Shown: piece after piece, positions 1,388-55,149 of the stretch | How positions within the stretch are numbered: position 1 is the first letter of the stretch | How the letters are laid out: each line of letters starts with the position of its first letter | Assembly: GCA_951406725.2 (NCBI GenBank) | Contig: OX597822.1 | Span: forward strand, 75,144,001 to 75,208,000 | Length of the DNA stretch: 64,000 nucleotides | From: Octopus vulgaris | Taxonomy: Eukaryota | Direction of reading: 5' to 3' | Program-made: the position numbers and the translations under genes | The notes under the pieces: model-generated | Told to the model about the DNA's origin: nothing | Databases searched by the model: none | What the model saw: only the letters and a program-made list of their open reading frames with translations

Positions 1388-1612
1388 GAGAGTGACCACT
1401 ATGTGGTTCACTCTAGTGCTAAAAATAGCTTAGCTAATGGTATAGCCACACCATTAGCGGAGCTATTTTTAGCACTAGAGTGAACCACATAGTGGTCACT
1501 CTCCAATATTTATGTATAAATTTGTATTTTCCCTTGGTTTTTATGTGCTAAGCCACTTGGTGTTAAATTGATGGTATTATTAAATTAATATCAAATTTTT
1601 TCACCCTCATTT
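1388..1612 (+). mobile_element. hairpin-headed PLE-like element (family D relative, no ribozyme retained)
   Basis: 54-bp inverted arms 1388-1441/1450-1503 plus a ~110 nt one-sided tail, inside (TA)n. Shares CTAGAGTGARCCACATAGTGRYCACTCTC and the ...TCACCCTYAT end with 23414-23943. Confidence 0.7.
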
Positions 1613-1639
1613 ATATATATATATATATATATATATATA

Positions 1640-2518
1640 CAGGGTGCGGTGAATAAACTGTTGTCTAAATTACGCAGAAATGAAAATAACACTGACAACT
1701 CATTTTAACTTATATTTACTAAAATTATATTAAAAAATACCTTAAAATACTAAAGAATGAATTTATTCAATAAAATCACCATTGGTTTCAACTACGGCCT
1801 CCAGACGACTTCAGAATCTCCTGAAACTCTTCTGGACGGTCCTCTTGTTTAGGTTGGTGAATGCTGCCATAATCCTTGCCTTCAGTTCATCTTTGGTGTT
1901 ACAAGGAGTTTTGTTGGTCTCTCGCTCAACTGCACCTCCACACATAATAATCAAAAGGATTGCGGTCTGGGGAGTTAGGTGGCCAGATGTTAGGGGTGAT
2001 GTGCAGAACTTGTCTGACAGCTACGACTGGGTTCTCCTGCTTGTGTGGCATGGTGCAAAGTCCTGTTGCCAGACATAGAGTCTTCCAGTGATCACCTGCT
2101 TGACTCAGAGCAGCGTAACCTCCTCCAGGCACTTCATGTAGGCCTCCCTGTTGAGTCTGAAGCCGTGAGGGAAGATGAAAGGAGGCATAACGTCACTATT
2201 GCTAGTGATCACTCCAGACACCATGATGTTGACTGGATGTTTGATTTTTATCACTCTCGCTACACATCCTCAGATTTCACTGTCCTCAGATTGACACCTG
2301 AACACTCTGAATTGTTTGTATTGGAGCTTCCAGCATGAATGTCAAGAAGTACAGCATGTCGTTTCCAAATTTCTGGCTGAGTGAATTGCATCATGGTGCT
2401 GTTTTTCTCACAGACAGTGCCCAACTGACCCTACTATACTGTGTAGTCACCAAAATCAAACAATGTGCATGCACGAAATTAAAAATATAAAATGGTGAAA
2501 TTTACCCATAGAACCCTG
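1640..2518 (-). mobile_element. internally deleted Tc1/mariner element (DD37D/maT-like)
   Basis: Ends CAGGGT...ACCCTG flanked by TA. Minus-strand transposase motifs VWQQDFAPCH and WPPNSPDRNPFDYYVW, frameshifted. Confidence 0.85.
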
Positions 2519-3129
2519 TATATATATATATATATATATATATATATATATATATATATATATATATATATATATAATTATTTGAGGGAATAAAATCCAA
2601 ACTTACAAGGAAAAAGAATTCAATTTAGAAATACTAAATCAAATTCCACACAATATAATGAATATATTAAAATATTAGAATATATATATATATATATATA
2701 TATATATATATATATATATGGTGTATTTCTCCATTTTCTTATTTTGTATATATATATATATATATATATATATATATATATATATATATACATATACATA
2801 TACATATACATACATATATATATATATATATATATATATATATATATATATATATATATATATATATACACATACATATATATATATATACATACATATA
2901 CATATATGGGGCCCCCAAGATCTTTAAAGTGTTTAAGAGCCTCTTTGCGTTTTAATTTGGCTCCAGGTTTGAACATAACACCTTCCCGTTGTCTGACATG
3001 ATGGTTATTAAAAGTGTCACATGCACCTCCCTTCTTTCTCAAACTTCACCAGCATATATTTTTAAAAAAACGCTCTTTGACTAATAACCTAGTAAACTGC
3101 TACTACAAGTTTCATAGTTGGGTCTAAAC

Positions 3130-5158
3130 ATGCAGGAGTCTTTTAAAAGCACTTATTAACTTAACCGGTTTCACTTATCTAAAATGATTTTCAAAAGTAA
3201 AGTGTGAGGTTTTGTGTATCCTCTGTGGTGTCAAAAATTAGTTTACATAAATGCATTCAAATCAGGTGAAAGAGTCTTTGACAATGATAAGAAAAGGTTT
3301 GAGGCTTTCCGTTTCCTTTGTGGTGAGTCCAAAAAATTGTTTACATAAAAACATTTGAATATACTAAAAAATATACTTGAACTGTCGACTGGTGTCGGAA
3401 AAACTAGGCAAAACTCAGAGTCCTACACACACACACACCCAACACGTATCCACACATAAACACAATTTCCCTATTTCCCAGGAGTACACATCGACAACAA
3501 ACACACACAGACACTCATATATACACACATATACGTATACCCATATACGCACTCAGACAGACACATACGCAGATACATACACACACACATAAAATACGAC
3601 ATATGCACACACACAGATACACACGCATACACACATGCACACACACACACACAAACGCAGCATCTCCATCCCCCGGTGGACACACACATATACAAACACA
3701 CACACACATACAGATGTGTGCACGCACATCCCGCCCAGATAAACACAGCACGTATACCTACATACACACGCATACACCGCTCTAACGAGCGCAACACACA
3801 TACACGTACACACACATGCACACACGCACATACATGTACACACATATGCACACATGCACACATATGCACACACAATGTAACACACAAACGCACGCATGCA
3901 CACCGCCCCGACAAACGTAACGCAAATATACACACACGCATGCACACACAGCACCATGACAAATGTAACACACACATACACATGCATACACACGCATACA
4001 CACGCATACACACACCACCCTGATAAATATAACACACATACACAGGCATATACACACACACACGCATACATGCGTACATACACACACTGCCCTGAAAACC
4101 GCAACACACATACATATACACGCACACACACAAACATGCATGCATCCATGCACGCACACATTCAGAGACTCACAAGTACACACACACAAATGGAACACCC
4201 ACACACACGCACAGAGACCTCCTCATCTGCATTCATCTCACTACCATTTTTTAACCCCAAGAGGATATCTCTAGCTGGTTAAAGGTGCACAGCTGCATCC
4301 AACATATTGTGAGCAGGGGAGTGAACTCCTACCACAAAAGGAAGATTTTTATACAGAAAAATTGCAACTCTGTTTATAACTGCCAAACTCCACCCAGATA
4401 CGGTACATTAACATATTCAAAACCTTGTTTCAATTGTCAACTACGTTGTGACCTGTGACCATCAATCACCCACACTGTTTTTACACCTGAAAACGAATAC
4501 TAGATGACAATGACATTTAAGAGATATATCATTAACATTTATTATTTTTGGATAAAATAAAGATTTTATACAGAAGAATTGAAACCCTTTTTATAACAGC
4601 CAAACTCCAACCAGATGCAAGGCCCTTAAAAATCAGATCCGAGAACTTTAAATGATCTGTTACATATTTTATCATTTTTATCTTCTTGTCAAAAACTTTA
4701 TTACTTAATCAGGATATATTCATGAAAACTAATTTTCTAATTTTTATCTTATCATTATAAAGAATTTTATTATCTGATCTGAATGTTTTAATGTAAACTA
4801 TTTCTTGAGTCATCTCAGAGGATACATATATTTTAATCTTCTTGTCAAAGACTCTATCACTTGATCGAGATATATTCATTTCAGCCAATTTTTTTCTTCT
4901 TATCATTATGAAAATATCTTATTACTGAAACTGGATGGTTTTCTGTAAATTATTTTTTGACTCATCACAGAGGATATGCAAAGCCTCAAGCCTTTTCTTA
5001 TCATTATCAAAGACTCAATCACTTGATTTGAATGCATTTTTGTAAACTAATTTCTAGCACAACAGAGGATACACGAAACCTCACATTCTGCTTTTGAAAA
5101 TCTTTTTAAATAAGTGAAACCAGTTAAGTTAATAAATACTTTTAAAAGACTCCTGCAT
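3130..5158. repeat. diverged ~180-bp inverted repeat enclosing ~1.7 kb
   Basis: 3130-3308 is a diverged reverse complement of 4980-5158. Confidence 0.75.
3420..4212. repeat. degenerate (CA)n-rich tract
   Basis: Direct reading. Confidence 0.9.
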
Positions 5159-53927: not shown

Positions 53928-54483
53928 GAGTGAGAGAGTAGTTCATGCTATCAAAGTGACACTGGGGTAAAATATACGAAGCCCAATATACCCATCATGA
54001 CTACCCGTCTGATAAAGGTACACCAGGCACATGCATCACAACCATATGTGCGCGACATGGTGATCTCATATCAAGATAAACAGCACATGACCTTGCAGGT
54101 GGGGCCCAGTTAGAATTTTCTTCAGGTTGAGTAGCCCATCCCGCTCAAAAGGTCCCTGAATAAGGGTTGTTTAAGGATGTTGAAAGAACCACCCATGTTT
54201 CCAGAGGTGAATTATTCAAACCCCAAAGACTCCCTCTCAACACATGGCTATGATGCTCCCCCACTACTTCTGCTCGTGATCAGAGATGCACATATCGTCA
54301 GCCACTAAGGGACATGCTCAACTGGTTAAGGTCAAACAACTGACAAGCAAATCTGTGGTATTGAGCAGAATATTTGCTGTAGCCCATCTTTTATACCAAG
54401 ACAAAACAATGTACATGATAACACTTCCAATCAGTTAAGATCAGAAGCCATGAGAGCCACTGCCTGGTACTGCATCAGGGCAT
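53928..54483. mobile_element. 556-bp unclassified insertion within (ATT)n
   Basis: Splits the (ATT)n of the family A arm; no ORF and no clear TIR. Confidence 0.7.
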
Positions 54484-54781
54484 TTATTATTATTATTATT
54501 ATTATTATTATTATTATTATTATTATTATTATTATACTCCTGTTCCATAAAAACAATAATTTTTCATTTTACTATTAGTAAAATGAAAAATTATTATTAT
54601 TAATATAATTATTATCATTATTCAGGTCACTGCTTGGAATCAAACTCGGAATCTTAGGGTTCCAAGCAGTGACCTGAATAATAATAACAATAGTAATAAT
54701 AATAATAATAATAATAATAATAATAATAATAACATTGAAAAATACCTTAGGAATGAGAACCCAGGTTAAAAATTTTCCCAA

Positions 54782-54826
54782 GACATCTGATGATGGCTGG
54801 AGGGTATATCAGCCGAAACGTTGTAC
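54782..54826 (+). ncRNA. minimal type I hammerhead ribozyme (family A, weakened stem I)
   Basis: gacat CTGATGA t ggctg-gagggtatat-cagcc GAAA cg TT gtac. Confidence 0.6.
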
Positions 54827-55149
54827 TAACAACAAACAAGACGAGGACAAATATCCCTCAAATATAAATAATGTAAATAATGTACATAATTCCTCATTTC
54901 TTAAATATAGAAGTGATGGAAACATTTGCACGCTAGGTAAAATGCTTAGCAACATTTGCATCCATCTTTACAGCCTGGGTTCAAATTTTGCCCAAGTCAA
55001 CTTTGCCTTTCATCCTTTTGGGGTAATAAATTAAAGAACAGTTAAGCATTGGGGTCGATGTAACTGATTTAAACCCTTCATCAAACTTGCTGGCCTTGTG
55101 CCAAAATCTGAAACCGATATATGTCATGTATTGTAGAAATATAAACCAG

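Follow-up and report, generated by a model that had tools for sequence, protein, structure and literature searches.

Penelope-like elements (PLEs) have been described to insert with an inverted 5'-truncated copy, a pseudo-long terminal repeat (pseudo-LTR), an optional tail of 30-40 bp and a bias towards (TA)n (PMC3846280, PMC8557442), and minimal hammerhead ribozymes have been described in them (PMC4209133). For PAc, a Poseidon element of the green anole, both target strands were reported to be nicked and extended in vitro, with two internal start sites of reverse transcription bounding the tail (PMC11167929). PLEs have been named a 'strong candidate' partner of non-LTR retrozymes (PMC7229834), and co-occurrence of retrozymes and PLEs together with pseudo-LTR homology, as in Xenopus, has been reported (bioRxiv 10.64898/2026.07.22.740005). 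Retrozymes have also been considered a possible type of short interspersed element (SINE; PMC8969392), and the schistosome Sm-alpha/Sj-alpha SINE-like units consist of a promoter of the RNA polymerase III (Pol III) type followed by a type I hammerhead (PMC6765202). Here, a stretch of 64,000 nt from the genome of Octopus vulgaris (contig OX597822.1, positions 75,144,001 to 75,208,000; in the following, the window) is described. It harbours hammerhead families A, B, C and D as well as the related or decayed loci 1388, 44681, 48084 and 48301, each as a head-to-head inversion with unequal 3' ends.

All of these loci carry the end signature of PLEs. Families C and A are interpreted as ends of coding PLEs, and B, D, 1388 and 44681 as sequences for which a (TA)n-targeting PLE likely supplied reverse transcription in trans; this interpretation, which includes a two-site mechanism of PLE integration, a circular or concatemeric template for B and D and a likely Pol III-started transcript for A, is considered highly probable. 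The first-pass annotation, made from the letters of the window, had placed all loci in a PLE system and regarded A, B, C and D as non-autonomous, microsatellite-targeted and PLE-mobilised. The placement stands, and the further description suits B and D (with 1388 and 44681), but C is the end of a coding Hydra-clade PLE and A that of a coding Poseidon-type PLE which, moreover, is not targeted to microsatellites. The features of the window on which the analysis builds are the following:

11429-11677 (-): left arm of A, short end
11676-11990 (+): right arm of A, comprising a tRNA-derived head with A box and B box, an (AAT)n tract, a Poseidon-type PLE pseudo-LTR and the long end
11864-11909 (+): minimal type I hammerhead of A; stem I of 5 bp, stem II of 6 bp after one extra base, palindromic stem III of 2 bp
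37149-37720 (inversion): decayed copy of A, short end left, long end right
53776-54914 (inversion): copy of A whose left arm is interrupted, in its (AAT)n tract, by an unrelated insertion of ~550 nt
26041-26648 (-): left arm of B with short end (monomer position 255); the ORF-less monomer of 353 nt is present 1.7 times
26206-26250 and 26559-26603 (-): hammerheads of B, type I descriptor, paired stems
26639-27147 (+): right arm of B, 1.4 monomers, long end at position 301; overlaps the left arm by 10 nt
26892-26936 (+): hammerhead of B, type I descriptor, paired stems
24399-25123 (-): left arm of C; 3' untranslated region (UTR), pseudo-LTR with hammerhead and ~70-nt tail of a Hydra-clade PLE
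24484-24534 (-): hammerhead of C, type I descriptor, paired stems
25135-25470 (+): right arm of C with hammerhead, short end
25406-25456 (+): hammerhead of C, type I descriptor, paired stems
23414-23476 (-): left arm of D, long end of a 535-nt ORF-less monomer
23477-23945 (+): right arm of D, 0.9 monomer with hammerhead, short end
23703-23784 (+): hammerhead of D, type I descriptor, paired stems
1388-1611 (inversion): D-related stump of a 485-nt tandem hammerhead family, too short to include the ribozyme
44681-44990 (inversion): stump of a tandem family (period ~477 nt) whose hammerhead-like core lies in another part of the monomer
48084-48292 (inversion): right arm ~70 nt longer; known here from the window copy alone
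48306-48541 (inversion): old family (48301) with decayed minimal hammerhead
27338-33630 (+): tandem duplicate of 21033-27324 with second copies of D, C and B

(ORF, open reading frame.) The inversions and their unequal ends were thus found where the first-pass annotation had seen them. The offset between short and long arm amounts to 33-35 nt in A at 11429 (19-37 over 18 loci), 46 nt in B (monomer position 255 in short versus 301-304 in long ends), ~70 nt in C, 108 nt in 1388 and 118-132 nt in D; the former estimates hold for A, B and C, while the ~110 nt given for D is too low. The loci listed earlier as ribozyme-less or decayed obey the same rule, and 1388, 44681 and 48301 are stumps of further hammerhead families. 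The 485-nt tandem of 1388 has its own hammerhead and is 73-78% identical to D, i.e. not unrelated to it; the single copy read of the 44681 family has a hammerhead-like core with G at the cleavage site; and the core that is decayed in the window at 48301 is intact in L293 (L plus number denotes genomic copies sampled outside the window).

With a strict type I hammerhead descriptor, 8 matches were obtained in the window, namely the cores of B and D plus their duplicates, compared to a mean of 0.06 and a maximum of 2 in 100 dinucleotide shuffles. The cores of A and C need a relaxed descriptor that allows one extra base after A9, as described for minimal PLE hammerheads (PMC4209133); among the three A loci of the window, 11429 alone passes. 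Paired-stem folds were found in all four families, in agreement with the original proposal. The Rfam scan of the window, which had been suggested as a check, was dominated by microsatellite miRNA models and yielded Hammerhead_1 for B only (32.2 bits, E 4e-4, below the gathering cut-off of 34), with no such match for A, C and D among the matches listed (150 of 302). The hammerheads of the different families were not alignable by MAFFT, hence no covariance model was built; it is the stems, which differ between families yet still pair, that argue for hammerhead function.

Copies outside the window were sampled from the 2.8-Gb assembly as the best 30-40 matches per query out of 1,100-3,000 first-look candidates (B, 40 of 2554 candidates scored; D, 39 of 1114). 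In 38 B loci, 66 arm ends were located. Of these, 35 lie at monomer positions 249-258 and 28 at 300-306, with 3 outside both clusters; (TA)n follows all 66 ends except 3. Inversions (27/38) prevail over single arms (11/38), and a short end is combined with a long one in 25/27 inversions, the other 2 being irregular and none like-with-like. The same combination was found in 8/9 inverted D loci (22 D loci sampled). The 5' breakpoints differ at every locus, and overlaps or gaps at the centres are mostly <15 nt. The short-ended arm is the longer one in 13/25 two-armed B loci, and neither arm contains the other in 8/25, which means that the arms did not arise from each other by fold-back copying. 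Opposite arms of B share minority variants at 56/243 sites versus 627/21376 between loci, pointing to a usually common source RNA of both arms.

In the mechanism proposed, a protein with reverse transcriptase (RT) and GIY-YIG endonuclease would nick both target strands, and one cDNA would start at each of two fixed internal RNA sites. The two cDNAs would stop at random and then be joined head to head, giving one short and one long end (the offset being the tail) and a locus-specific centre. Monomers of B and D contain one hammerhead each, and the B monomer is strongly folded (folding z -6.6). Together with 1388 and 44681 they are classified, by sequence features, as ORF-less tandem non-LTR retrozymes with periods of 353, 535, 485 and ~477 nt. 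Because their arms hold 0.1-6 monomers in any start register but with a fixed 3' end, the template of B and D was likely a ribozyme-cut, re-ligated circle or a concatemer; free register and fixed 3' end also suggest that the arrays are formed at integration. None of the sequencing runs recorded as RNA contained B; a 383-nt contig of run X1 (among four contig sets), a run only tentatively taken as RNA, comprises one B monomer plus overlap and fits a circle or a genomic tandem alike.

The coding parent of family A was reached with the sequence beyond the tail of the tandem variant L108 as query, which retrieved copies where the tail opens into an ORF (L202). The A tail enters an RT ORF in L202, L240 and L266. 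Locus L240 retains the whole, decayed layout of the parent, including a GIY-YIG-like motif recognized by eye (no Pfam match) without Cx2-5CxxC ahead of it, and a 465-aa piece in L266 contains RVT_1 (E 5.5e-10) and a DKG motif. The parent was seen at L202/L240 and L278-L286; the family is old, every copy seen being broken and most of the 150 scored (of 786 candidates) having stops. Family A is accordingly assigned to the end of a decayed coding Poseidon-type PLE, with the clade labels Hydra, Poseidon and Neptune resting on motifs. In the parent, the stop codon is followed after ~35 nt by the head, which is 74 nt long and bears the A and B boxes; the (AAT)n tract and the pseudo-LTR come next. 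Of the endonuclease-end copies fetched, 9/10 run into the head, 7 of these 9 further into the pseudo-LTR.

For insertions of A, 30 loci were picked by the pseudo-LTR alone. In 22 of them, 33 arms reach the head; 29/33 start at -18..+15 of the head, 3 start further inside and 1 extends into the endonuclease end. The A and B boxes, read directly in the head, have the spacing of 30-35 nt expected of a tRNA-derived SINE. In a comparison with 30 tRNA loci of this genome (a subset only), 4/4 heads align to tRNAs at 54-60 versus shuffled maxima of 42.5-48 (300 shuffles), the best match being Arg in three and Cys in one. Opposite arms are present in 18/30 loci and are short in 18/18. Their flanks share strings of 9.3 nt on average versus 4.5 nt in mismatched pairs (>=7 nt in 15/18), i.e. 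variable target-site duplications (TSDs) of 7-14 nt in 15/18. The long end adjoins (TA)n in 1/30, so the (TA)n insertion formerly ascribed to most of the loci applies to B, C and D and not to A. The 3' part of A consists of a PLE pseudo-LTR with hammerhead and tail, and a 3' end borrowed from a long interspersed nuclear element (LINE) was not encountered.

The accumulation of arm starts at the head of A is best read as a Pol III start. Most copies would then likely derive from a short Pol III transcript begun at the tRNA-derived A/B-box module in the 3' UTR of the parent, and the family would behave as a PLE-mobilised SINE, SINE-like in action without being a LINE-dependent SINE. Alternatively, the fixed 5' end could reflect a strong stop of RT, or cleavage of the long PLE mRNA at its tRNA-like module in the manner of RNase P; the quasi-palindrome at the start point could promote fold-back, and the module does belong to a coding element. 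The head folds poorly, though, and should be a weak block as well as a weak RNase P substrate, the ends fall between about -5 and +15, the expected place of a Pol III start, and both boxes fit the consensus and spacing quoted in PMC8969392. A T4 run occurs on the sense strand in 1/15 A units, a weak argument as the strand is A-rich. An RT stop or RNase P-type cut is thus regarded as possible but clearly the less probable origin of the 5' end.

Two further observations concern A and its parent. Tandem circles of ~250-280 nt, in which tail and ORF start of the parent are rejoined to the pseudo-LTR, were found at L108, L183 and L206; these are apparently retrozyme-like arrays being born from a coding PLE. 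Moreover, a retroelement 3' end was found repeatedly in the (AAT)n tract (window 53929-54485; L088, L099, L107, L278), indicating that A offers target sites to another retroelement.

For family C, the layout of L062 comprises an inverted long-tailed arm, pseudo-LTR, tail, RT-GIY-YIG frame, long 3' UTR and short-ended pseudo-LTR. The ORF, collinear between two C pseudo-LTRs, is broken by one frameshift and one stop; its RT and GIY-YIG-like motifs were read directly (RWR, DKT, CxCx5C, GIY-YIG-like), and the nearest Atlas clusters are of RT type. Hydra-clade PLEs are marked by an RWK-like motif, DKT, a CxCx5C linker and a (TA)n target (PMC8557442, section 11). The C ORF pieces had no match in Pfam and BLASTP against N1, a Neptune-type PLE of this genome, was not significant, both consistent with a divergent clade. 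Next to the long ends of C, a clean (TA)n run is found in 22/32, most others being degenerate TA/CA, and the inverted 5'-truncated copy with a tail at one end recurs in L031, L041, L055, L061 and L062. The window copy of C consists of two 5'-truncated ends of a coding Hydra-clade RT and GIY-YIG element.

If C and, by descent, A are ends of coding PLEs, the same might be assumed for all families, the B and D arrays then representing tandem pseudo-LTRs of unsampled parents. Partial tandems are formed by PLEs (PMC8557442), and a parent could lie among the B and D candidates beyond those scored. Behind the long end, at the position where C and A open into an ORF, the sequence of B and D stops or begins the same monomer anew, in as many as 6 rounds, and no ORF is collinear with any arm (38 B, 22 D loci); a coding parent of B and D is therefore judged improbable. 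Mobilisation of B and D by a LINE, with the arrays grown later by unequal crossover, appears very unlikely. An RTE-like RT frame of 707 aa is present in the window at 19350-21473 and later local amplification of arrays has been proposed (bioRxiv 10.64898/2026.07.22.740005), but B and D lack poly(A) or a LINE-like 3' tail, neither a 3' end common to B/D and a LINE nor a single fixed 3' end was seen in the sampled loci, both arms bear arrays whose registers differ while the outer ends are fixed, and two fixed internal ends with head-to-head inversions fit PLEs. Least credible of all are miniature inverted-repeat transposable elements (MITEs) or other foldback DNA transposons, or copying of one arm from the other by fold-back synthesis: despite the palindromic look, the 1-14 nt overlaps at many centres and the variants common to both arms, the ends are asymmetric, the centre is different each time, TSDs are of variable length (7-14 nt), and single-armed and non-nested B loci occur, the latter refuting this origin as the general case. 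Symmetric terminal inverted repeats with fixed-length TSDs, named beforehand as the outcome that would speak against PLEs, were not seen.

A candidate for the enzyme that moves B and D is N1, a young family with Cx4CxxC linker, RVT_1 and GIY-YIG which inserts in (TA)n, has many open 784-aa frames among 150 scored matches and combines short and long ends in 6/6 loci with both outer ends. At L005, a 5'-truncated N1 arm meets a B arm of 1.9 monomers head to head, with 7 nt between them and no target repeat, and neither N1 nor B continues on the far side. This joint, together with a short motif shared at the long ends, provides leads to N1, not proof. Two features of N1 itself may be added: a 437-aa upstream ORF (no Pfam match) overlaps the 784-aa RT-endonuclease frame (L179:1514-5115, L178), and its hammerhead is a U3/A8 variant.

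Several results weigh against the interpretation given here. The queries for B, A and C contained the long tail, so that long ends and young copies are over-represented. By BLAST, no coding PLE shares the monomer or tail of B or D among the five families sampled (N1, C, the parent of A and two further GIY-YIG elements); the comparison of arms with PLEs proposed at the outset has thus found partners for C and A only. A 7-9 nt motif is all that the long ends of D, 1388 and 44681 have in common with that of N1, and a mixed-family joint was found at one locus only (L005 = L141 = L146) among all loci sampled, where the B arm has a non-standard end (position 5). The head of A was called neither by ARAGORN (0 in 12 loci) nor by Rfam and has no cloverleaf fold (z +1.6). 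Across copies of A, minority letters amount to 4.3% in the hammerhead core and 4.8% in its neighbours, so the core is no better conserved than adjacent bases, an outcome named beforehand as speaking against the proposal; equal decay is what neutral decay after insertion would give. Finally, the ribozyme of PAc was not required for insertion in vitro (PMC11167929).

The occurrence of B, C and D twice in the window is due to duplication of 21033-27324 at 27338-33630 (6.3 kb, 99.6% identity, 25 differing columns nearly all in simple repeats) and does not represent independent insertions. At the junction, 13 nt copy a stretch ~70 nt upstream (27257-27269), a pattern of templated-insertion repair that speaks for a genuine, recent duplication rather than an assembly error; no sequencing record in the four contig sets compared spans the inversion centre or the duplication junction. 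The RTE-like frame mentioned above (707 codons, RVT_1, PHD-like insert) is 5'-truncated, and its 3' end lies inside the duplication. No PLE ORF was detected in the window, neither in the ORF list nor by tblastn with PLE proteins of this genome (the sole match being the C tail itself), confirming the first impression that RT and GIY-YIG frames are absent. A further element, absent from the first-pass annotation, lies between (TA)n tracts at 22441-23245 (-). It has internal repeats of 86-112 nt towards its 5' side, and near 22531-22565 a variant resembling a hammerhead core of the U3/A8 type, for which no stem I was found. Beside the sampled loci, at least 5 further hammerhead-bearing families were noticed (L142, L143, L131:850-884, L145:2817-2858, L290:202-280), two of them joined to GIY-YIG frames and many stacked in the same (TA)n tracts. 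The window also contains a 105-nt tandem array at 39143-43226 (39 copies, 94% matches, one frame open for 600-800 codons), the unit of which looks like a degraded piece of an abundant SINE-like repeat, and more inverted repeats that are symmetric or pairs of SINE-like copies (43412-43775, 45132-45409, 3123-5165, 15274-17007).

Inverted copy, tail and (TA)n architecture as well as the link between retrozymes and PLEs are already in print (PMC3846280, PMC8557442, PMC11167929, PMC7229834, bioRxiv 10.64898/2026.07.22.740005). With endonuclease-containing PLEs, the present loci share the head-to-head inversion, the tail at one end and the type I hammerhead in the terminal repeat; further common traits are the variable 7-14 bp TSDs of A, the (TA)n targets of C, B and D, the Hydra-clade motifs of C and the Penelope/Poseidon architecture of the parent of A. 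Unlike in those described, the tails reach 46, 70 and 108-132 nt, are strictly paired with a short end in two-armed loci rather than merely optional, and the parent of A has the tRNA-derived module in its 3' UTR. Likeness to PAc extends to two internal start sites bounding the tail, use of both strands and an ORF frame through hammerhead and tail; relative to its two-site priming, the present data agree with a single start site on each strand, cDNAs that stop at random and their joining. PAc is a coding element studied in vitro, and neither one start site per arm nor non-coding passengers feature in the consulted parts of PMC11167929.

Like animal non-LTR retrozymes (PMC7229834, bioRxiv 10.64898/2026.07.22.740005), B and D are ORF-less monomers of 350-540 nt with a hammerhead each, tandem, strongly folded and coexisting with PLEs. 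Homology to PLE pseudo-LTRs, as reported for such retrozymes, was not detected for B and D in the families sampled. In both sources, PLE mobilisation is deduced from co-occurrence and pseudo-LTR homology, whereas here it is the two-end signature on inverted arms that suggests it; the preprint suggests growth of arrays after insertion, as opposed to their probable formation at integration proposed here, and a word search of its main text returned no inverted, tail, junction or tRNA analysis. In the short retroposon A, a Pol III-type promoter-like module precedes a type I hammerhead as in Sm-alpha/Sj-alpha; the schistosome unit is tandem, with no coding parent named in the part of PMC6765202 consulted, whereas the module of A resides in the 3' UTR of a coding PLE and occurs in single or inverted copies with tails. 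The consulted text of a cephalopod repeat annotation (PMC13282606) makes no mention of hammerheads or ribozymes. Titles and abstracts of the open-access literature gave neither a tRNA-headed PLE-derived SINE or tRNA module inside a PLE 3' UTR (Repbase and Dfam being outside the scope) nor inverted two-ended retrozyme insertions (curated repeat databases being outside the scope).

Relative to this literature, three points appear to be new: retrozyme arrays that obey the two-end rule of PLEs, and thereby provide direct insertion-level evidence for mobilisation by PLEs; one insertion that joins a B arm to the arm of a Neptune-type PLE; and a parent of A with a tRNA-derived A/B-box module at which 29/33 arms start, likely a built-in SINE. 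As a more general view, for which the chances are rated about even, PLE integration would be an obligate two-site twin priming by which retrozyme arrays are written at once from circular RNA and two different RNAs may enter the same event, and a Poseidon-type PLE would have gained a tRNA promoter in its 3' UTR, by which its tail end became a very abundant PLE-mobilised SINE.

As for the route of animal retrozymes into genomes, PLEs have so far been named as candidate on circumstantial grounds. Young insertions of B and D have, on their inverted arms, two priming sites that are specific to PLEs, which links these retrozymes to PLE enzymes through the insertions themselves. Exact RNA coordinates for a priming test are provided by B (255 and 301-304), and intact N1 ORFs are abundant in the genome. 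The strict pairing of short and long ends constrains the second-strand step of PLE transposition, and family A would show how a SINE can arise whose mobility relies on PLEs rather than LINEs. Genome annotation would list such repeats under MITEs, satellites or ordinary SINEs.

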